Counted from the stretch's first letter, positions 14,899-60,820 are shown. The stretch is 64,000 bases of DNA from Bacilli bacterium (GCA_017515795.1 JAFWEE010000006.1:20-64019); one strand, 5' to 3'. Notes: a model not told the origin generated them from the sequence alone. Numbers and translations: made by a program.

Positions 14899-16206
14899 TT
14901 AAAAAGGTAATTTCATATTTCCATTACTCATCATTTTCATCATCTTTTTAGATTCTTCAAATTGTTTAAGTAATTTATTTACTTCTTGTACAGAGGTACC
15001 TGATCCTTTAGCTATTCTTTCTTTTCTAGAAGCTTTAATTATATCAGGATCTTTTCTTTCTCCTGGTGTCATAGATAAAACTATAGCTTCTATTCTAGCT
15101 ATTTGTTTAGGATCTATTTGTATATTACTAAGTCCCATCTTTTTAGCACCTGGTATCATTTTTAAAATACTTTCAATAGAACCCATCTTCTTAATTTGTT
15201 TAAATTGTTTTAAGAAATCTTCTAGGTCATATTTACCTTTTTTCATCTTTTTATATGTGCTTAATGATTCTTCCTCATCCATTACAGATTCAGCTTTTTC
15301 AATAAGAGACATTATATCTCCCATACCAAGAATTCTACTAACCATTCTTTCTGGATCAAATTCATCAAGTCCATCTAATTTTTCAGATGTACCTATAAAC
15401 TTAATTGGTATACCAGTTAAATATTTAGCAGATAATGCTACACCACCTCTAGTATCACCATCTAACTTAGTTAAAATAGTTCCTGTAAGTGGTAACTTAT
15501 CATTAAAACCAGTAATAACATTAATAGCATCTTGTCCCATCATACTATCTATTACTAACATTACTTCATTAGGTTTAACTTCATTATTAATGTTCTCTAA
15601 TTCATCCATTAGTTTTTCATCTATTTGAAGTCTTCCTGCAGTATCTATTAATACATAGTCTAAACCATTTTCTTTAGCATAAGCAATTGAGTCTCTAGCT
15701 ATTTGAACAGGATCTTTAGTACCCTCTTCAAATACTGGTATATTTAAACTTTTACCAAGTGTTTGCAATTGATTAATAGCAGCTGGTCTATATATATCTG
15801 CTGCTACTAATAATGGTTTTTTATTATATTTTTTTCTAAGTAAATTAGCTAGTTTACCTATAGTAGTAGTTTTACCTGAACCTTGTAGACCTACTAACAT
15901 AAGAATACTAGGATTACCCTTAGTATAAATATCTGCTTTATCACTACCAAGAAGTTCTAATAATTCATCTTTTAATATCTTTAGGAATACTTCATCAGGT
16001 TTTAAACTTTTTCTTATTTCTTCTCCTAAAGCTTTTTCTTTTACTTTGTTAGTAAACTCTTTAACAACTGTATAGTTAACATCTGCCTCTAATAAAGCAA
16101 GTCTTACTTCTCTTAAAACATCTTGTATATTTTCTTCAGTAATAGATCCATATCCTCTAATTTTACCTATAGCACTATCTAATCTATCTGATAAACTTTC
16201 AAACAT
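14899..16206 (-). CDS. ffh: signal recognition particle protein Ffh
   Basis: MFESLSDRL N-terminus, GLQGSGKTTT P-loop, DTAGR, TKLDGD, and a Met-rich M domain. Confidence 0.95.
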   Translation of the reverse strand: MFESLSDRLDSAIGKIRGYGSITEENIQDVLREVRLALLEADVNYTVVKEFTNKVKEKALGEEIRKSLKPDEVFLKILKDELLELLGSDKADIYTKGNPSILMLVGLQGSGKTTTIGKLANLLRKKYNKKPLLVAADIYRPAAINQLQTLGKSLNIPVFEEGTKDPVQIARDSIAYAKENGLDYVLIDTAGRLQIDEKLMDELENINNEVKPNEVMLVIDSMMGQDAINVITGFNDKLPLTGTILTKLDGDTRGGVALSAKYLTGIPIKFIGTSEKLDGLDEFDPERMVSRILGMGDIMSLIEKAESVMDEEESLSTYKKMKKGKYDLEDFLKQFKQIKKMGSIESILKMIPGAKKMGLSNIQIDPKQIARIEAIVLSMTPGERKDPDIIKASRKERIAKGSGTSVQEVNKLLKQFEESKKMMKMMSNGNMKLPF

Positions 16207-16215
16207 AGTTGCCTC

Positions 16216-16515
16216 CTATAAATCTAGTATATTATTTATTTTCTCTATTAATTCTTCATTTCCTGTTTCTTTGATTAATTTAGTAATCTTTTTATCTTTA
16301 TCAATTAATTTAAGTTTAGAATCAAAATCTTCAAGTTTACTGGTAGCAAGCTTTAAATCCTTTGAAACTGCATTCTTACTAACACCATTATTTTCTGCTA
16401 TTTCACTTAAAGTTAAATTATGAAAATAATAATCAATAAAATAATTTTTTTGAGAATCAGTAAGTAATTCTCCATAATAATCAAATAATATTATTAATCT
16501 ATCTTGTAATTCCAT
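16216..16515 (-). CDS. ylxM: YlxM/p13-like putative DNA-binding protein (UPF0122)
   Basis: LFDYYGELLTDSQKNYF...LSEIAENNGVSKNAVSKDLK, in the conserved position between ftsY and ffh. Confidence 0.8.
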   Translation of the reverse strand: MELQDRLIILFDYYGELLTDSQKNYFIDYYFHNLTLSEIAENNGVSKNAVSKDLKLATSKLEDFDSKLKLIDKDKKITKLIKETGNEELIEKINNILDL

Positions 16516-17502
16516 TTACATCATTTCCTTAAATAATCCATATATATATTTTTCAATATCAAAAGTTCTTAAATCTTCTTCTTTTTCACCCATACCTACA
16601 TATTTAACAGGTATATTAACCTCTTCTTTAATAGCTAAAACTATTCCACCTTTAGCAGATCCATCTAATTTAGTTAATACTATTCCTGTAACATCAGTTA
16701 TTTCTTTAAAAGCTTTTGCTTGAGATATACCATTTTGACCAGTAGTAGCATCAATAACTAATAAAGTTTCTTCTGGAGAACCTTCTTGATGATTATTAAT
16801 TACCTTTTTAATCTTCTCCAACTCATTCATTAAGTTAACTTTATTTTGAAGTCTTCCTGCAGTATCAATAAGTACTAAATCATAGTCTTTAGACTTTTCC
16901 ATACCAGTATAAACTACTGAAGCAGGATCTACTCCTTCTTCACCATTAACTATATCTACATTTAGTCTCTTAGCCCATTCAGATAATTGTTCTACTGCGC
17001 CTGCTCTAAATGTATCTGCAGCTACTAATAATACTTTTTTACCTAAATCTTTCTCTTTCTTAGCAATTTTAGCTATAGTAGTAGTTTTACCTACTCCATT
17101 AACTCCAACAAATAGAATAACTGTAGGTCCATTATCTCTATAATTAATTTTATTTACTAACACTTCATCATTAACATAGATAATAAATAATTCATCAACG
17201 ATTAATTCTTTCAATTCTTCTGGATCATCAATTTTTTCTTTCTTAGCTCTATCTACTAATCTATCCATAAACTTAATAACAGTATTAACACCAATATCTG
17301 CCATTATAAGTATTTCTTCTAATTCTTCAAAATATTCCTGATTAACTTTAGAATATTTCTTGTTCAACTTATTTAATTTATCTGAGAAATCTTTTCTAGT
17401 TTTTTCTAAACCTTTTTCATATATTTCAGTTTCTTTTTTATCAACTTTATTAACTTCTTTATTACTAGAAAATTTTTCTTTTATTTTGCTAAATAATCCC
17501 AT
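16516..17502 (-). CDS. ftsY: SRP receptor FtsY
   Basis: GVNGVGKTTT, DTAGR and TKLDGSAKGG motifs. Start placed at ATG 17502 (MGLFSKIKEKF). The track start at 17511 is a GTG inside the SD AGGTGA. Confidence 0.93.
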   Translation of the reverse strand: MGLFSKIKEKFSSNKEVNKVDKKETEIYEKGLEKTRKDFSDKLNKLNKKYSKVNQEYFEELEEILIMADIGVNTVIKFMDRLVDRAKKEKIDDPEELKELIVDELFIIYVNDEVLVNKINYRDNGPTVILFVGVNGVGKTTTIAKIAKKEKDLGKKVLLVAADTFRAGAVEQLSEWAKRLNVDIVNGEEGVDPASVVYTGMEKSKDYDLVLIDTAGRLQNKVNLMNELEKIKKVINNHQEGSPEETLLVIDATTGQNGISQAKAFKEITDVTGIVLTKLDGSAKGGIVLAIKEEVNIPVKYVGMGEKEEDLRTFDIEKYIYGLFKEMM

Positions 17503-17534
17503 GTTTATCACCTAATAAATATTATATCATATAA

Positions 17535-17566
17535 TAAAAAAAACTACATCAATTGATGTAGTTTTT
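17535..17566 (-). terminator. hairpin terminator after the 390-aa repeat-module gene
   Basis: 12-bp stem aaaaactacatc / gatgtagttttt with loop aatt, 3 nt after the stop. A T-run follows on the minus strand. Confidence 0.55.
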
Positions 17567-17568
17567 AA

Positions 17569-18741
17569 TTACATAGATCTTCCTGAAGAAATATCTTCAT
17601 CTATTGTAGTAAACATATTGTTGTTATCATATTTTTTATAAAATTGATCTATTTTAGATTTTTTAGATTTTACACTAGCTATAGTTTTATAATAATCTAA
17701 AATAATTTGTTTATTAACAGTTCTCTCATTTATCATTTGATCAAATTCTGGATCTCCTGGTTCTATCCATTCTGAATTAGCATCTTCTATAAACATCTTT
17801 CCGTAGTCATCTAATTCTTCAAATGCTTTCTTTTGATCTATATCATATAATGAATCAAAGTATAAAATAATCTTATCAATATTAATTGCTCTTTCATTAA
17901 GCATTTGTTCAAACTCAGGATCTCCTGGTTCTAATCCTTCAGCTTTACTATCATCTATAAATGCTTTTTCATAATCATCTAATTCATTATATAATCTCAT
18001 TTTTTCTTCATTATATTTTTTATTGATTTCTTCTAATCTAGCTTTTTCCTTTTCAACAGTTGGATTAGGTACCTCTACAGGTTTTTCTATAGGAGTATCA
18101 TTACTTGTTCCTCCAGTAGATGATGAACCACCATTATTACTTAATGTACCTACAGTAAATCCTCCATAAGAAGTTTTCCTTCTCTTTTTATTAGTAATTC
18201 CACCACCAACTACATTAGAAGTATTATTATTAGTAATACCCTTCTTTATTTCATCAATCTTATTTTTTAAATACTCTATTTGATTATCTTTTATATCGTT
18301 ATTTTTAATATTAAAAAATAATTCAGCTTGTTTAGAAGGACAATCATCTAATAAATCACAAATATCATTAAAAATGCCTTCAAAAGCTTCATCAGTATAT
18401 TTTGGATCTTTCTTGGCAAAATCATGATATCCTTTTATTAAAGCAAAATCATAAACCATTTGAGATAATCCTTCAGGATCTTTCTTTAATGTTTCTACCC
18501 AATCTTCATTTAATGCTTTTTTCATTTTACCTAAAATATATTCATCAGATCCTATTACATTTAAATTATTATTAATACATTTTAGAGTTTCATTAAACTT
18601 TTCTTCTTGTTCTTTTTGCTCTCTTCTTTCTTGGTTCTTTTCTTTTGCATTATTGTATCCGTCTTTAAACTTATCTTTTACTCTTCCAAATAATCCTACT
18701 GCTTTTGTTCTTAATTTTGATTTAGGTTTACTTATACTCAT
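17569..18741 (-). CDS. hypothetical protein (390 aa) with two tandem copies of a FIDD-x-AEGLEP-x-DPEFEQMLNERT module
   Basis: Module copies at about aa 241-298 and 303-352 (DNA 17686-18021). A G/S/N-rich basic low-complexity centre. No signal peptide or TM segment. Confidence 0.7.
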   Translation of the reverse strand: MSISKPKSKLRTKAVGLFGRVKDKFKDGYNNAKEKNQERREQKEQEEKFNETLKCINNNLNVIGSDEYILGKMKKALNEDWVETLKKDPEGLSQMVYDFALIKGYHDFAKKDPKYTDEAFEGIFNDICDLLDDCPSKQAELFFNIKNNDIKDNQIEYLKNKIDEIKKGITNNNTSNVVGGGITNKKRRKTSYGGFTVGTLSNNGGSSSTGGTSNDTPIEKPVEVPNPTVEKEKARLEEINKKYNEEKMRLYNELDDYEKAFIDDSKAEGLEPGDPEFEQMLNERAINIDKIILYFDSLYDIDQKKAFEELDDYGKMFIEDANSEWIEPGDPEFDQMINERTVNKQIILDYYKTIASVKSKKSKIDQFYKKYDNNNMFTTIDEDISSGRSM

Positions 18742-18795
18742 TTATAATACACACCTCTATTCTATATATATTATATCATACAATGAATAGATAGC

Positions 18796-18825
18796 AAAAA
18801 AGATGTCAAATATGACATCTTTTTT
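18796..18825 (-). terminator. hairpin terminator after the 509-aa repeat-module gene
   Basis: 13-bp stem aaaaaagatgtca / tgacatctttttt with loop aata, 5 nt after the stop at 18830. Confidence 0.55.
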
Positions 18826-18829
18826 TACA

Positions 18830-20359
18830 TTATAAGGTTAATCTTTTAATAATTTCTTTTTCTTGTTTTTTAGAATCTATTCTATTTAAGATTTCAACAA
18901 GTTCTGCTTTTGTAAAAGCACTTACCTTATGTTTTTCAAGTTCAGCACCTGTTAACATATTTTTGTTTTCAGCAGCTTCTCTTCTTAATTCATTAATAGT
19001 ATATAAGCTATAATCTTTTGATTCAGTACCAGTTAATTTAGAGTATTCATCAATTACTTTCTTTTGTTCTAATAAAGCAACATCATAAATCATCATAAAT
19101 GCCCATATTTGTACATCATTAACTGTTCTTTCGCTTAACATTTGTTCAAATTCAGGATCATATATATCTAGACCTTCTGCAAAAGCATCATCTATAAACA
19201 TTCTTTCATATTCACCTAAACGAGCATATGCGTTTTTAACACCTAATTTAAAATTATTATATTTATTTGTTAATAATTCTTTATTCATATCTAAATCTAG
19301 ATTATTTAATGTTTTATAGTATTCATATATAGCGTTCTTATCAACTGTTCTTTCATTTAACATTTGTTCAAATTCATTATCAGTTGGCTCTAAACATTCA
19401 GCTAATGCATCATCTATAAACATTTTTTCATATTTACCTAATTTAGCATATTCAGCTTTTTTAAGTTCATTATATTTATTAACAGTTTCATCATGTTGAA
19501 TATCTTCTGCAGTAGGTTCTGTTGGTTCCACTGGTGTTACTGTTGGTTCCACTGGTGTTACTGTTGGAGTAACTGTTGGTTCTGTTGGAACTGTAATTAA
19601 TGTATTTATTGGTTTAGTTGAAGTTGTTGGAGTTGTTGGAATTGTTGGAGTAACTATTTTATTAGTTTTATCATCTTCAACTTTTGCTCTCTTACTAAAT
19701 AAATAAGATAATCTATTTTTTAGATTTAAACTTGTTTTAGTTTTTTTAATCTTTTTAAATGTCCCAATTCCACCATTCTTAGATTTAGTCTCAGTATCTT
19801 TTGGTTCAAGTTTAAGATTTTTACTTAATGAATATTGAACTTTATTCTTTAAGTTACTAAATACATTAGTTTTATTCTTTTTAATCTTTTTAATAGATCC
19901 TATACCGCCATTATTATTCTCTTTAGTTTTAACAGTATTTTCTTTTGGTTCAACTTCTGCTCTCTTACTAAATGTATAAGATATTCTATTAGTAATATTA
20001 TTATGTTTAATAGCATTTTTAATATTACTTAGTCTTTGTTTCATTGTTGGTATTTCAACAGGAATAAAGTCATTATAAATATCTTCTTTCTTAGTGTTTT
20101 TCATATCATCTACATATAGTAAACCAATAGGTCTATTATATCTACTATTAATTATACTTCCTGACTTTGGTTCAACTTTAAAAGTTTTCATTCTAGAATT
20201 AATAATATATCCTCCAGGAACAATTAAGTCTTCTGGATCTATATCTTCTTTAGTATCTAATACTAGATCATTTCCTTTATATGCAAACCTATAATCTGGA
20301 TTAAGTCTAGCTATTTCTTGTATTAATTTTTTAAAATCTCTTTCACTAGAATAATTCAT
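18830..20359 (-). CDS. hypothetical protein (509 aa), paralog of 17569-18741 carrying the same duplicated module
   Basis: Modules at about aa 294-350 and 366-425 (DNA 19085-19480): YEKMFIDDALAECLEPTDNEFEQMLNERTV and YERMFIDDAFAEGLDIYDPEFEQMLSERTV. Also basic GGIG-KKIKK repeats and a PT-rich linker. SD AAGGGGGA. Confidence 0.7.
   Translation of the reverse strand: MNYSSERDFKKLIQEIARLNPDYRFAYKGNDLVLDTKEDIDPEDLIVPGGYIINSRMKTFKVEPKSGSIINSRYNRPIGLLYVDDMKNTKKEDIYNDFIPVEIPTMKQRLSNIKNAIKHNNITNRISYTFSKRAEVEPKENTVKTKENNNGGIGSIKKIKKNKTNVFSNLKNKVQYSLSKNLKLEPKDTETKSKNGGIGTFKKIKKTKTSLNLKNRLSYLFSKRAKVEDDKTNKIVTPTIPTTPTTSTKPINTLITVPTEPTVTPTVTPVEPTVTPVEPTEPTAEDIQHDETVNKYNELKKAEYAKLGKYEKMFIDDALAECLEPTDNEFEQMLNERTVDKNAIYEYYKTLNNLDLDMNKELLTNKYNNFKLGVKNAYARLGEYERMFIDDAFAEGLDIYDPEFEQMLSERTVNDVQIWAFMMIYDVALLEQKKVIDEYSKLTGTESKDYSLYTINELRREAAENKNMLTGAELEKHKVSAFTKAELVEILNRIDSKKQEKEIIKRLTL
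19512..19650 (-). repeat. in-frame tandem repeats encoding a Pro/Thr-rich linker
   Basis: Perfect 21-nt tandem duplication gttggttccactggtgttact at 19521-19541 and 19542-19562. Flanked by 9/12-nt gttgg-type periodic units (gttgttgga three times near 19622-19648). Encodes TVTPTVTPVEPTVTPVEPTEPT and PTIPTTPTTST. Confidence 0.85.
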
Positions 20360-20502
20360 TATAATTTCCCCCTTTGAAAATATGCGCTATATGATACCAC
20401 CAAGGCCTTTTTTTGTCAAATAATTTGCCCTTTTTTTAAAAGAGTAGTATAATCTTATTTGTGAAACGCATTAACTTTATATTTTGGTAGAAAGGAAAGA
20501 AT

Positions 20503-22188
20503 ATGAAATTTTTTGAAAATAATACTGATACTAAAGTATTTGCGCTTGGAGGTCTTGGAGAAGTCGGAAAAAACATGTATTGTATAATGCATGGTAATGA
20601 ACTTGTTATCGTTGATTCTGGAGTACTATTTCCGGAAGCTGATTTATTAGGTATTGATTATGTAATACCAGACTTCTCATTTTTAAAAGAAAACGAGAAT
20701 AAAATTAAGGGATTATTTATTACACACGGTCATGAAGATCATATTGGAAGTATACCTTTTTTACTTCAAACAGTGAATATTCCTGCGATTTATGCGCCTA
20801 ATCAAGCTGCAAATCTTATCAAAAAGAAATTAGCAGACAGAAATATTAGATTTGATAATATTATTGTTTATAATGAAAAAGACAAATATAAGTTTAAAAA
20901 TATAGAAGTAGAATTTATAGCAACTACTCACTCTATTCCAGATAGTTATGCTATTGTTATTAGAACACCAGATGGTGTAATAGTAGAATCAGGAGACTAT
21001 AAATTTGATATGACTCCTATTGGACCTATGGCTAACTTACAAAAGATGGCTAAAATAGGATCTGAAGGTGTTACTCTACTTATGAATGAAAGTACTAATG
21101 TAGAAAGAGAAGGAGTTTCTCTTTCAGAATCTAAAGTAGACGAAGCTTTATCTGATTTATTTAGAAGACAAACTGGAAGAATAATTGTTGCTACATTTGC
21201 ATCTAATGTATTTAGATTAAAACATATTATAGAAACTGCTAAAAGAAATAATAGAAAAGTAGTACTATTTGGAAGAAGTATGGTTAACCAAGTAGAAATA
21301 GCTATAGAATCTGGAATAATAGAAAATAATGGTACTATTATTTCTCCAGAAGAATCTAATAACTTAAAACCAGAAGAAGTATGTTTACTTTGTACTGGTA
21401 CTCAAGGAGAACCTTTAGCAGCCTTATCTAGAATGGCAAATGGTACTCATAAACAAATAAAACTAGTTCCAAGCGATATAGTTATATTCTCATCATCACC
21501 TATTCCTGGTAATGGTGAAGCAGTAGCTATTACTCTTAATAAACTAGCTTTAAATGGAATTAAAACATACACAAATGCAATTTTAGGAGACATTCATTCA
21601 TCAGGACATGGTAATCAAGAAGAATTAAAGTTAATGATAAGATTATTAAAACCAAAATACTTAATGCCTATCCACGGTGATTATAGATACCTAAGAAAAC
21701 ATGAAGAAATAGCTATAGCATGTAAAATGCCAAAGAACCATATATTCCCTATGATGAATGGTGAAATATTATCTATTAAAAATGGTGTATGTAAAAGAGC
21801 AGGATCATTTCCTTGCTATGACATATATGTAGATGGTAATAGAATTGGTGATGTTGGTGGAGCTGTTATTAAAGATAGAAAAATAATGTCTAATGATGGA
21901 ATACTAGTTCTAGTATGTAATCTAGATATTAAAGGTAAGAAACTTCTTGGAAAAGTTAATCAAGCAACAAGAGGATTTGTTTTAGTAAATGAAAATGAGG
22001 AATTACTTTCTCAAATAGAAAATAAAGCTGAAGAAGTTATTAAAAGAGAACTTAATAATAAGAAGTTTAATATAGCTGATTTAAAGAATAAAATAATAAC
22101 AGATGTTAATGATTTCATAATAGAAAAAACTGGTAGAAAACCAATTATTATGCCTGTTATTATGGATATAAAAAGTAGTGATAAATAA
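20503..22188 (+). CDS. rnj: ribonuclease J
   Basis: Metallo-beta-lactamase/beta-CASP: FALGGLGEVGKNMY, HGHEDHIG, and a typical 555-aa-class length. Confidence 0.92.
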   Translation: MKFFENNTDTKVFALGGLGEVGKNMYCIMHGNELVIVDSGVLFPEADLLGIDYVIPDFSFLKENENKIKGLFITHGHEDHIGSIPFLLQTVNIPAIYAPNQAANLIKKKLADRNIRFDNIIVYNEKDKYKFKNIEVEFIATTHSIPDSYAIVIRTPDGVIVESGDYKFDMTPIGPMANLQKMAKIGSEGVTLLMNESTNVEREGVSLSESKVDEALSDLFRRQTGRIIVATFASNVFRLKHIIETAKRNNRKVVLFGRSMVNQVEIAIESGIIENNGTIISPEESNNLKPEEVCLLCTGTQGEPLAALSRMANGTHKQIKLVPSDIVIFSSSPIPGNGEAVAITLNKLALNGIKTYTNAILGDIHSSGHGNQEELKLMIRLLKPKYLMPIHGDYRYLRKHEEIAIACKMPKNHIFPMMNGEILSIKNGVCKRAGSFPCYDIYVDGNRIGDVGGAVIKDRKIMSNDGILVLVCNLDIKGKKLLGKVNQATRGFVLVNENEELLSQIENKAEEVIKRELNNKKFNIADLKNKIITDVNDFIIEKTGRKPIIMPVIMDIKSSDK

Positions 22189-24461: not shown

Positions 24462-24482
24462 AAAACACTATAAAAGTGTTTT
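24462..24482 (-). terminator. rpsO-pnp intergenic hairpin (weak terminator/processing site)
   Basis: 8-bp stem aaaacact / agtgtttt with a 5-nt loop, overlapping the rpsO stop at 24481-24483. Followed on the minus strand by TTCTTTTGTTTTG. An extended -10 (TGATAGAAT, 24448-24440) downstream could be a separate pnp promoter. Confidence 0.4.
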
Positions 24483-24750
24483 ATTTTCTTAAACCTAATT
24501 TTTTAATTATTTCTCTATATCTGTTTACATCAGTTCTCTTAAGATATTCTAGAAGTCTTCTACGTCTTCCAACTTTCTTAAGTAAACCTCTCTTAGAATG
24601 AAAATCATGAATATTAACTTTTAAATGTTCAGTTAAAGTATTAATTTCTTCAGTTAATAAAGCAATTTGTACTTCTGCAGAACCAGTATCTTTATCATTA
24701 ATACCATATTTCTTAATTAATTCTAATTTCTTATCTGCTTTTAAAGCCAT
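24481..24750 (-). CDS. rpsO: 30S ribosomal protein S15
   Basis: 89 aa with [48 protein letters not shown], a canonical S15 sequence. Confidence 0.95.
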
Positions 24751-39228: not shown

Positions 39229-40002
39229 TTATTTTATTCTTATTACTAAATTTACTATTATTGCTATATAAACTATTACAATTACAGAAATTATAATAGC
39301 ATCTGCAATACCAGATTCTTTTTCATTAGTTTTAGGAACTAATTTTTTAGTTTGTGGAGCTATATTAGGAGCCTCAGTTATAACAGGAGTTGCTGTTTCA
39401 ACTATACCTGTTTTAGGAGGTTCTGGAATCTTTTCTTCCACAATTTTAATACTTTCTTCTGTAATAGGGCCTTTACTAATAACTTGTGTATATCCAGTAT
39501 TAGTAAGCATATCAGGAGAATCTTTATATTTACCTAAATCTACTTCAGGAACATTATCTGATTTGGTTACTTTTGATTCTGGTGGGTTAGTTATATATTC
39601 TTCAGCAAGTTGAATCATATGTGGTTTTTCACCAGGTTTATATTCATTATCTTTAACATCTCTTTGATTATAACCAGTTATATTTTGATTATTAGGAATC
39701 TCAATATTATTTTTAACATATTCTTTTTCTTGTCTTATAAAATCATCATTAACTTGGATACCTTTTGATTTAAGAAATGCTTTATATGATTCTTCGCTAG
39801 TAATACGATTTAACTCATCAACAGTAAAGTCCTTAATATCAGGATAAGCAGTAAAGAAAAATCTAATGAAGCCATCTATTGTTGCAGTTCTACTCATTCT
39901 AGTTGTTTTCCAACCTATTCGATCAAACAAAAATACTTTTGCAGAATCATTTAATTTATTATCATAAAAATCCCTTGCTTCAGGTAAACTTTTAAAAAGC
40001 AT
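39229..40002 (-). CDS. hypothetical tail-anchored protein with a Pro-rich linker (257 aa)
   Basis: No signal peptide. P/T/E-rich linker, then a C-terminal anchor GIADAIIISVIVIVYIAIIVNLVIRIK that closely matches the anchor of 60155-60820. Start at ATG 40002 with SD AGGTGG. Confidence 0.6.
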   Translation of the reverse strand: MLFKSLPEARDFYDNKLNDSAKVFLFDRIGWKTTRMSRTATIDGFIRFFFTAYPDIKDFTVDELNRITSEESYKAFLKSKGIQVNDDFIRQEKEYVKNNIEIPNNQNITGYNQRDVKDNEYKPGEKPHMIQLAEEYITNPPESKVTKSDNVPEVDLGKYKDSPDMLTNTGYTQVISKGPITEESIKIVEEKIPEPPKTGIVETATPVITEAPNIAPQTKKLVPKTNEKESGIADAIIISVIVIVYIAIIVNLVIRIK

Positions 40003-40089
40003 CCTAACCACCTACTTTTCTACTATAACATTATTATATCATAAGTATAGAAGAAAATAAATAAAAAAAATAACTAGTTACACTAGTTA

Positions 40090-60130: not shown

Positions 60131-60156
60131 AAAAAACTATCATATGATAGTTTTTT
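60131..60156. terminator. bidirectional hairpin terminator between convergent genes
   Basis: Near-perfect palindrome aaaaaactatc-atat-gatagtttttt, flanked by A and T runs. Touches the stop at 60155-60157. Confidence 0.55.
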
Positions 60157-60820
60157 ATTTTAATCTAATAATTGAATACATTATTACAATACCAATTATT
60201 ATTGTAATAATACTTATTATAATTGCATTTGCGTTTCCTTTTTGACTATCAGCTTCATCTGGACTAATTTCCATTTGATTATCATCAAATAAAGGATTAG
60301 CTTCTACTGTGTTAGAGAATGGTGTAACATCAGGAGTTATTTCTTCATCTGCTGCATTAATTTCAATATTAACTGGAGCTTCTTCAACTGCAGGAGTTTC
60401 AGTAATAGTTATTTCTGGTTCTACTGAAGCTACTGGAGTTTCAGGAACTACAGGAGCAGGAGTTTCAGGAATTGGAGCAGGAGTAGGAACTTCTACTGCT
60501 TTAGCTCTTTCCATCTCTTCATACTTTGCTTTCATTTCTTTATCAAATGCATCTATATCATTAATAATAGAATCAAATGGTATTTCAAGATTATCATTAC
60601 TATATTTCTTAAGCATAGAAATATATACTTCTTGAGTAATAGTAGGATTATCTTTAGCACATGCATTTAATCTATTTATGATTTCAGTTTTTCTTTCAGA
60701 TAGTAAGGTTTCTTTATAAGAATCAAATGCTGCCTTTTTTTGTTCATCAGTCTTAGTTGCGTCACTTAAGATCTTCATTACTTCTTCTTCATTGTAATCG
60801 AATTTGTTTCCCATAATCAT
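60155..60820 (-). CDS. hypothetical tail-anchored protein with a Pro-rich linker (221 aa; alternative start ATG 60814)
   Basis: No signal peptide. Linker VEVPTPAPIPETPAPVVPETPVASVEPE. C-terminal anchor GNANAIIISIITIIIGIVIMYSIIRLK is homologous to that of 39229-40002. The SD GGAGAC spacing favours the second ATG. Confidence 0.6.
   Translation of the reverse strand: MIMGNKFDYNEEEVMKILSDATKTDEQKKAAFDSYKETLLSERKTEIINRLNACAKDNPTITQEVYISMLKKYSNDNLEIPFDSIINDIDAFDKEMKAKYEEMERAKAVEVPTPAPIPETPAPVVPETPVASVEPEITITETPAVEEAPVNIEINAADEEITPDVTPFSNTVEANPLFDDNQMEISPDEADSQKGNANAIIISIITIIIGIVIMYSIIRLK
60421..60458. repeat. dispersed 38-nt near-identical segment (copy B); partner at 40538-40575
   Basis: 37/38 identity to copy A, read directly from the sequence. 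Confidence 0.9.

Follow-up and report, generated by a model that had tools for sequence, protein, structure and literature searches.

RocS of Streptococcus pneumoniae is a DNA–membrane tether in which, as in Noc, a cytoplasmic protein combines a nucleic-acid-binding domain with a short basic amphipathic membrane element. Noc itself is the DNA–membrane tether of Bacillus subtilis (PMC4331003), and an N-terminal membrane-targeting sequence is established for FtsY (PMC8082313, citing Weiche 2008 and Parlitz 2007). Two adjacent genes, here called A and B, are described below in a 64,000-nucleotide stretch of DNA from a Bacilli bacterium (GCA_017515795.1, JAFWEE010000006.1:20-64019), the whole of which is referred to as the window; by analogy with Noc and RocS, the product of gene A may work in a similar way. 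The likeness is architectural only: A and B have no sequence relationship with these tethers and no ParB/CTPase or helix-turn-helix domain in Pfam scans, and the putative membrane element of A, unlike theirs, is repeated inside a disordered region. Both genes carry a tandem acidic all-helical repeat, the module, which is a genuine and selectively maintained domain and which, judged from its sequence, is a previously undescribed domain family; the protein type as such, a membrane-associated helical-repeat scaffold with a HeH tail, is familiar.

18830–20359, minus strand: gene A, 509 aa, protein P0002
17569–18741, minus strand: gene B, 390 aa, protein P0001

Both open reading frames (ORFs) lie where the first-pass annotation, made from the sequence alone, had placed them, and each encodes two tandem modules of ~60 aa in its C-terminal half; they are listed here with the score of the module hidden Markov model (HMM) and the predicted local distance difference test (pLDDT) of the AlphaFold2 models.

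19298–19483, minus strand: module 1 of A, residues 293–354, HMM 100.7 bits, pLDDT 82–92
19079–19270, minus strand: module 2 of A, residues 364–427, HMM 84.3 bits, pLDDT 82–90
17839–18024, minus strand: module 1 of B, residues 240–301, HMM 91.8 bits, pLDDT 86–95
17671–17856, minus strand: module 2 of B, residues 296–357, HMM 95.9 bits, pLDDT 86–94

Every module of the two proteins matches all the others in pairwise comparison, the alignment of the four copies has 15 invariant columns, and the BLASTP match between A and B (E = 2e-25, 45% identity over the tandem region) is confined to the C-terminal halves. The HMM placement (17671-18024 and 19079-19483) agrees with the module spans proposed in the first-pass annotation (17686-18021 and 19085-19480); of the KYN-x-(L/E)K helix that it had put before each copy, KYN stands in front of three of the four, the second copy of B having SLYDIDQKK instead. 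In the AlphaFold2 models the modules are all-helical (pLDDT 82–95), each consisting of a long helix, a 12-residue helix, a loop (G/C)LxPxD, a 9-residue helix and a second long helix, and the last helix of module 1 is continuous with the first helix of module 2. The net charge of the module pairs is -14 to -16; over 104 distinct copies collected from the family, the mean per module is -5.5, with a range from -11 to +1.

The same 104 copies contain 15 near-invariant positions, with L15, E19, F22, D25, E29, D35, E37, F38, M41, E44 and R45 kept at 83–98% (84–98% when F38 is left aside; L15, D25 and M41 at 95%), and no conserved Cys, His, Ser or Lys. Compared with the 94%-identical strain L035, the ratio of nonsynonymous to synonymous substitution rates (dN/dS) is 0.28 for gene A and 0.18 for gene B, next to 0.16 for rnj and 0.19 for pnp; it falls to 0.05 in the modules of B and to 0.04 in the C-terminal domain of A. 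Together, this conservation and the low dN/dS establish the module as a constrained domain. Thus, the earlier view that its acidic and aromatic positions are not mere low complexity holds, under purifying selection, and the loss of these positions among homologs, named there as the mark of an unconstrained repeat, was not observed, D35, E37 and R45 being retained at 96–98%.

The same annotation had left it open whether these positions form a binding or an enzymatic motif. In the second case, the invariant carboxylates and the arginine (D25, E29, D35, E37, E44, R45) would build an active site or a Ca/Mg/Fe site, and by helical periodicity, the only basis here for assigning surface and core positions, several of the carboxylates would lie near the hydrophobic face, as suits a carboxylate cluster. 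We consider this highly unlikely: a 60-aa all-helical unit without conserved His, Cys, Ser or Lys offers little for catalysis, neither the PDB sequences nor Foldseek gave a neighbour among enzymes or metalloproteins, and the module varies in copy number and is dispensable within the genus. The conservation part of the earlier claim thus stands, and the enzymatic part is unlikely.

Several searches for known relatives support the earlier statement that the module fits no described family. Scans of A, B and ten relatives against Pfam-A, NCBIfam and PHROGs gave only sub-threshold matches for the module, namely COX6C (15.2 bits, cut-off 22), STI1-HOP_DP (12–15 bits, cut-off 29.1), HSV_VP16_C (12–18 bits, cut-off 27) and RQC_minor_2 (19 bits, cut-off 300). 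A profile of 19 copies found nothing significant among all PDB sequences (best E = 0.023), and three Foldseek searches with the whole-protein models of A and B returned no match at E ≤ 0.001, the best values being 0.75–1.1 in PDB and 0.13 in BFVD; the nearest, non-significant, shapes were designed helical repeats and protein-A repeat arrays. The structure prediction suggested in the first-pass annotation has thus yielded a confident all-helical model with no significant Foldseek counterpart in PDB or BFVD.

Two known repeat types resemble the module in part. Its core, FxxDAxAEGLxPGDxEFxxMLN, recalls the junction of helix B, GIxPD turn and helix A of PPR proteins, and weak PPR-like matches were obtained with P0062 (E = 1.4e-5) and with rPPR5 of PDB (E = 0.05), beside STI1-DP at E = 0.02–0.18. 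However, the module has ~60 aa and four helices, against 35 aa and two in PPR; Pfam gave no PPR family at E up to 1 for P0001 and P0002, or up to 0.1 for six relatives, and Foldseek gave no PPR or TPR structure. All these scores lie under the thresholds of the families concerned; the resemblance is local and probably convergent. The modelled arrangement, small helical bundles in tandem joined by a continuous helix, is also that of spectrin-like and EzrA-type scaffolds, and by this analogy a membrane-associated scaffold role is likely for A and B too; the module has half the length of a spectrin repeat and no Foldseek match to one, and A and B lack an N-terminal transmembrane (TM) helix.

An arrangement of this kind raises the question whether the modules are simply generic, fast-evolving filler, a helical stalk or spacer for which coiled coil could substitute and in which the conserved polar residues serve as helix caps and internal salt bridges. 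Indeed, D35 (before helix 3), N/D48 (before helix 4) and G/D16 (before helix 2) occupy modelled helix N-termini, between one and four copies score per protein, the best Foldseek neighbours are the designed and protein-A arrays mentioned above, and in two members of the genus (G001 and G009) module-less coiled-coil or acidic helical proteins occupy the same genomic slot. On the other hand, E19, D25, E29, E37, E44 and R45 are kept at 89–98% across proteins that are otherwise less than 30% identical, which exceeds the needs of a spacer, and both the dN/dS of 0.05 in the modules of B and the acidic charge kept throughout the family argue in the same direction. A purely structural role is therefore unlikely, although it deserves serious consideration.

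The database search for taxonomic spread proposed in the first-pass annotation was carried out as an exhaustive HMMER search with the module profile in 1.84 billion representatives; it found 57 proteins at E ≤ 1e-3, 43 of them at E ≤ 1e-10, with a narrow range in uncultured rumen Bacilli of ~1 Mb. Among the weakest of the 57 are unrelated repeat proteins (P0049, P0053, P0062, P0064 and P0065). A profile search with full-length A-type proteins was unproductive, as low-complexity words saturated the candidate list. Among GTDB representatives, the module occurs in four of the 14 species of the genus to which the window belongs and is absent from 145 sampled genera of the order and from 24 further genomes of the class; matches in JGI metagenomes come from the same rumen lineage, and most family members derive from short metagenomic contigs without taxonomy. 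The gene pair is lineage-restricted and fast-evolving. IMG/VR contained no relative of the module, and this absence, together with the synteny with core genes (such as rpsO, pnp, rnj, ftsY, ffh) at every locus examined, rules out cargo of a phage or mobile element.

A few sequences at the margin of the family were also recorded. P0055 (398 aa, ENA metagenome) joins a calcineurin-like metallophosphoesterase to a single C-terminal module, FVMDARAEGIEPGDPEFDQMVQERGLNKQKLLEYYKYL, and is the sole fusion of the module with an enzyme that was seen. The metagenomic proteins P0054 and P0063 contain repeats of the form WHPDLTQEQIDE(L/M)KAEG(L/I)xPGDPEYxxYLKNHG, which have the core AEGLxPGDPE(F/Y) in common with the module in a shorter unit, and they may represent a distant sister repeat. 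A 420-aa ORF of contig Ga0138321_10030273 (L041, 15-1277) has a zinc-ribbon-like N-terminus, a dipicolinate-synthase-like C-terminus and one and a half modules of A type, the same in sequence as their counterparts in the L017 lineage; this contig is most likely chimeric, and it was set aside as a family locus.

The source genome is a metagenome-assembled genome (MAG) of 684 kb, 66% complete, and the G+C content of the window is ~26%. Its closest public relatives are Bacilli MAGs from water-buffalo reticulum and other ruminant samples, and genome sizes across the family are ~0.8–1.3 Mb. The genome encodes Mur ligases, FtsZ and SMC; therefore, the host is a walled, streamlined Gram-positive bacterium, and a wall-less, mollicute-like host is ruled out by the Mur ligases and FtsZ. 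The possibility that A and B stand in for smc upstream of ftsY was likewise discarded, since SMC is present at another place in the genome, as it is in four relatives.

The two genes are flanked by rnj on one side and by ftsY-ylxM-ffh on the other, in the following arrangement.

20503–22188, plus strand: rnj (RNase J), divergent upstream neighbour
20391–20419, minus strand: promoter-like site of gene A, TTGACA-17-TATCAT with TG extension
18796–18825, minus strand: terminator hairpin of gene A with a 13-bp stem and a T run after it; shares nucleotides with the -35 element of gene B
18770–18797, minus strand: promoter-like site of gene B, TTGCTA-16-TATAAT with TG extension
17539–17566, minus strand: terminator hairpin of gene B with a 12-bp stem and a T run after it
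14899–17511, minus strand: ftsY, ylxM and ffh, downstream context

Both promoters are sigma-70-like, each gene has a Shine-Dalgarno sequence, and the terminator scan gave three terminator-like sites, against 0.4 in shuffled sequences. With a promoter and a hairpin terminator for each gene and with the BLASTP homology between their products, the description of A and B as adjacent monocistronic paralogs is confirmed, and the ORF order of the window bears out their position immediately upstream of ftsY-ylxM-ffh (ftsY at 16516-17511, ylxM and ffh directly after). In the mechanical ORF call, ftsY has a GTG start (MINMGLF...); the Shine-Dalgarno sequence AGGTGA lies 6 nt 5′ of an ATG at 17502, which is probably the true start and would give a protein beginning MGLFSKIKEKF.... 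With this start, an amphipathic membrane-targeting motif would stand at the very N-terminus of FtsY.

The gene order with rnj divergent from A and B, followed by ftsY-ylxM-ffh, is repeated at five further loci (L016, L017, L038-L040); at L035 the contig ends after rnj, A and B, and in one case a one-module A-type gene, P0067, stands alone between rnj and ftsY. A distant subgroup, comprising P0027-P0038 and P0045 and named Rho_N after its C-terminal domain, has another N-terminus and other upstream genes, and still lies directly upstream of ftsY-ylxM-ffh (L042-L044). The order ftsY, ylxM, ffh is partly seen in L046 as well. At L045, where ftsY is missing from the neighbourhood, a pair of this subgroup adjoins rnj and a PBP gene. 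Across divergent lineages, therefore, the gene has remained next to ftsY, to rnj or to the two of them. The Rho_N-subgroup gene is always followed by one for a Lys/Thr-rich tail-anchored protein of 112–144 aa with a net charge of +22 to +29 (L042 1395-1799, L043 2051-2389, L044 4222-4605, L045 3001-3435), which consists of an N-terminal (KKTTT/AKK)n region and a tail anchor with hardly any variation, FNVWIDALILVFI(I/V)LMFVLILYGYVMSA; a tblastn search of the genome of the window, which is 66% complete, found no homolog of it.

In members of the genus that lack the module, the place between rnj and ftsY is taken by proteins of 658 aa (G001, L031 4727-6703) and 580 aa (G009, L034 1984-3726), which keep only a basic motif, also found in A and B: there are three copies of GIGGFFGHFGKRKNIEVED in G001, and GYFVASKFYSKKDIEFVD is found in G009. 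The protein of G001 has three exact-looking repeats of ~60 aa containing ERKHIFRNGLYAIGNGIGGFFGHFGKRKNIEVED. Its comparison with the N-terminal domain of the family gave no statistical link (hhalign E = 0.025, probability 2%), and its kinship rests on position and basic motif only. Slot proteins that look unrelated within one genus indicate that the slot evolves fast; it is hypervariable, with the motif as its most persistent element within the genus and the module as one of several helical bodies that occupy it.

The consensus of the basic motif in A and B types is G(L/F)(F/Y)x(R/K)(I/V)KxK(F/L)xYxF(S/T)KRxxV(E/D). Gene A encodes three copies, two of them with GGIGxFKKIKK just before, and gene B a single copy at its N-terminus.

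18634–18723, minus strand: N-terminal basic motif of B, residues 7–36, KAVGLFGRVKDKFKDGY; resembles the FtsY N-terminus MGLFSKIKEKFSS

When the motif HMM was run against the 900 ORFs of the genome, the top match after gene A was the N-terminus of the adjacent FtsY (MGLFSKIKEKFSS, E = 0.12, a link backed by rank and not by significance), followed by the GLFGRVKDKF of B. Lys/Arg-rich segments with Phe, Leu or Ile at helical spacing are typical of the FtsY N-terminus and of the C-terminal amphipathic helices of MinD and FtsA, and the motif has the same character: GLFGRVKDKF of B compares with MGLFSKIKEKF of the neighbouring FtsY, and FFARVKRFFG and LLRRLFARPK of relatives compare with MinD-type helices. 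It differs from all of these in extending into a conserved YxFSKRxxVE and in being internal, in up to three or four copies. A HeliQuest-type lipid-binding discriminant, with a threshold of > 1.34, gave 1.8–2.1 for two stretches of A, 1.15 for the motif of B and 1.06 for FtsY's own N-terminus; in relatives, where the motif reads VGNFFKKLKSKF, LLRRLFARPK or the MinD-like FFARVKRFFG, it reaches 2.25–2.53.

Five relatives (P0012, P0022, P0024, P0041 and P0056) have a tail-anchor TM helix (KD19 2.8–3.4), whereas the same test on P0001 and P0002 gave no hydrophobic segment. Basic motif and tail anchor would thus be two devices to reach the cytoplasmic face of the membrane, and this alternation is the main argument for membrane association. 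The anchors of P0012, P0022, P0024 and P0041, of the form GF(T/I)D(I/L)F..S(I/V)..II.G(I/V)L...(K)L, resemble those of two unrelated ORFs of the window (39229-40011 and 60155-60820, minus strand), which have a tail anchor G(I/N)A(D/N)AIIIS(V/I)I(V/T)I(V/I)... in common; this suggests a tail-anchor sequence typical of the lineage.

The genomic position and the motif can also be read together in a different way, as signs of an accessory of the signal recognition particle (SRP) pathway. Instead of anchoring the proteins in lipid, the basic YxFSKRxxVE motif would then dock them onto FtsY, SecYEG/YidC or the ribosome; their role would be one in co-translational targeting, such as keeping mRNAs or ribosomes at the membrane, and the adjacency to ftsY-ylxM-ffh would be functional. 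Consistent with such a role, two subgroups with 42–59% identity and with different N-termini and upstream neighbours both lie immediately upstream of ftsY-ylxM-ffh, and the motif, similar to the N-terminus of FtsY, is the one constant of very different slot proteins within the genus. However, each of the genes has a promoter and a terminator to itself, and the pair at L045 is found beside rnj and a PBP gene, away from ftsY; moreover, linkages of the smc-ftsY type in Firmicutes indicate that a gene next to ftsY does not necessarily have a part in SRP targeting. On balance, a role in the SRP pathway seems rather doubtful.

The remaining parts of the two proteins are arranged around motif and modules. 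Gene A encodes, in order, an N-terminal domain, the three basic motifs, a Pro/Thr (PT) linker, the two modules and a HeH/Rho_N-like C-terminus ending in RLTL; gene B encodes the basic motif, a helical domain, a Gly/Ser (G/S) linker, the two modules and a tail ending in SSGRSM.

20048–20359, minus strand: N-terminal domain of A, residues 1–104, helix and beta strands, LNPD...LxxPxGY, pLDDT 57–75 (residues 1–50 only)
19676–20047, minus strand: basic region of A, residues 105–228, net charge +21, three copies of (GGIGxFKKIKK...)(R/K)(I/L)SYxFSKRAxVE
19511–19675, minus strand: Pro/Thr linker of A, residues 229–283, predicted disordered
18833–18997, minus strand: HeH/SAP/Rho_N-like domain of A, residues 455–509, with a 9-aa insertion LTGAELEKH; ends in KRLTL
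18229–18552, minus strand: helical domain of B, residues 64–171, DEYIxGKMK...DPExL...HDFAKKDPKY, pLDDT 78–90, conserved in B-type orthologs
18064–18228, minus strand: Gly/Ser-rich disordered linker of B, residues 172–226, pLDDT < 50
17572–17589, minus strand: extreme C-terminus of B, SSGRSM here, SGG(R/M)S(K/R) in orthologs

The GGIG-x-(I/F)KKIKK repeats, the G/S stretch of B and the PT linker of A are all present as first described. The N-terminal domains had been said to differ, which is true of this genome and does not hold for B orthologs of other species: these have 574–656 aa and start with a domain, xxLIxEIxxLNPD...LxLPxGxY, that matches the N-terminal domain of A (hhalign 94.3%, E = 1e-7). 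This homology makes A and B full paralogs, by sequence, and not proteins with only a tail in common; the domain is missing from the B of the window and from that of a close strain, and has been lost from the former. Within the PT linker of A, a perfect 21-nt tandem repeat (19519-19567, 2.3 copies, 100% match) lies amid related 9- and 12-nt units. P0004, the ortholog of A in a 94%-identical strain, has 9 aa fewer in total, and most of the difference falls in this linker, whose length thus varies between strains.

The C-terminus of A reads LTINELRxxAxxNxxxLTGAELEKxKxSxxxKAELVEILNRI and had been overlooked in the first-pass annotation, as had the basic motif that resembles FtsY and the extreme C-termini, which are conserved as (K/R/Q)L(G/T/S)L(x)(K) in the A type and SGG(R/M)S(K/R/M) in the B type. 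In the distant subgroup the corresponding tails score 24.6–38.4 bits with Pfam Rho_N, eight of ten lying above the 24.9 cut-off (25.5–38.4), and NCBI has named one of these proteins ‘Rho termination factor N-terminal domain-containing protein’. The tails of the clade that includes the window align with them (hhalign 88.9%, E = 2.4e-6), the former having an insertion of 9 residues, and AlphaFold2 models the tail of A with helices at 455–464 and 484–506 and short helices in the insertion (pLDDT 69–87). Rho_N, HeH and SAP (PF07498, PF12949, PF02037) are helix-extension-helix modules, with an extended linker between two helices. The comparison with them is thus based on the alignment of the last ~55 residues of A with C-termini of the family that pass the Rho_N threshold and on two modelled helices, as expected for such domains; the tail differs in the insertion between the helices and in a score below the Pfam cut-offs, and the comparison is limited to the tail of A, involving neither the module nor gene B. 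Gene A thus appears to end in a divergent domain of HeH/Rho_N type.

If this domain binds DNA, the extreme C-terminus of the A type, which is QLGL(V/I/M)K in the Rho_N subgroup, could be taken for a motif that binds the beta sliding clamp, and the proteins for adaptors of replication or repair. The clamp-binding consensus is QL[SD]LF or QLxLxL, usually C-terminal; the PolC of this genome ends in a canonical QLSLF, and tails of the subgroup read DRQLGLVK, DKQLGLMK, DKQLGLIK and DRQLELVK. P0002, however, ends in KRLTL and its close relatives in K(T/K)LGL, so that the Gln and the fifth hydrophobic residue are missing; the trailing Lys is atypical, and ribosomal protein S15, with its C-terminal KKLGLRK, resembles the tail just as closely. 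A clamp adaptor is thus very unlikely. As to S15 itself, the product of rpsO (24481-24750, minus strand) ends in ...IIKKLGLRK, and the 7-mer KKLGLRK recurs at the extreme C-terminus of P0033 and resembles the (K/Q)LGLxK tails of the A type, perhaps by chance.

The linkers leave room for a last alternative, since PT- and G/S-rich segments are typical of wall-spanning regions and the organism, with its Mur ligases, is walled; the PT linker of A could accordingly belong to an exported, cell-surface protein. This is extremely unlikely. A and B have neither signal peptide nor TM segment, as the first reading had it (the highest 19-residue Kyte-Doolittle mean is 1.18 in A and 0.42 in B), nor a sorting motif; in the tail-anchored relatives the modules precede a single C-terminal TM helix and lie on the cytoplasmic side, and HeH/Rho_N is a cytoplasmic nucleic-acid-binding module.

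The reading that we tentatively favour is that A and B are membrane-peripheral nucleic-acid-binding scaffolds whose acidic repeats bind partners. They would be elongated, partly disordered cytoplasmic proteins, probably located on the inner face of the membrane, to which the basic motif (GLFxR(I/V)KxKFxYxFSKRxxVE or GGIGxFKKIKK) may attach them in the way of FtsY; relatives with a C-terminal tail anchor would get to the membrane by other means. The HeH domain of A may bind nucleic acid, either DNA or RNA, and the acidic modules would form a non-catalytic, rod-like platform for binding or oligomerisation. Charge complementarity is found between the module pairs (-14 to -16) and both the middle region of A (+21) and the Lys/Thr-rich neighbours of the distant subgroup (+22 to +29); partners of the modules might thus be the other member of an A-B pair or basic segments such as the proteins' own +21 middle region; for the distant subgroup, the partner might be the tail-anchored, Lys/Thr-rich product of the next gene downstream. 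In this way nucleic acid would be tethered at the membrane, near the SRP/translocon genes in the genome and perhaps near their products in function.

Several observations weigh against this reading. Modules of HeH type are not always nucleic-acid binders, and P0002 remains under every Pfam threshold for HeH, SAP and Rho_N, its 72-residue tail giving SAP at E = 0.043. The motif copies of the window are only moderately amphipathic (muH 0.29–0.52), and their link to FtsY is the one of rank given above. As the genes are monocistronic, the adjacency to ftsY may reflect history and not function. Finally, the occurrence of module-less proteins in the slot within the same genus implies that the module is dispensable for the role of the slot.

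A more specific proposal, which we regard as improbable, is that the slot beside ftsY houses a membrane-proximal tethering system, in which the acidic repeat would clamp basic partners while the HeH domain holds mRNA or the nucleoid, coupling them to SRP and translocon as a scaffold for ‘transertion’ or RNA localisation. The clamped partner would be the basic region of the paralog in this lineage and the Lys/Thr-rich tail-anchored protein in the sister subgroup. In the same proposal, the basic motif may derive from a copy of the 5′ part of ftsY.

A family model would allow ~57 currently unnamed metagenomic protein clusters to be annotated, and the module is a compact target both for such a model and for structure determination; its practical impact will stay modest before a partner or a phenotype comes to light. 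For the biology of these organisms, the placement at the side of ftsY and the alternation of basic motif and tail anchor hint at an organisation of nucleic acid or of targeting at the membrane of streamlined Gram-positive bacteria.

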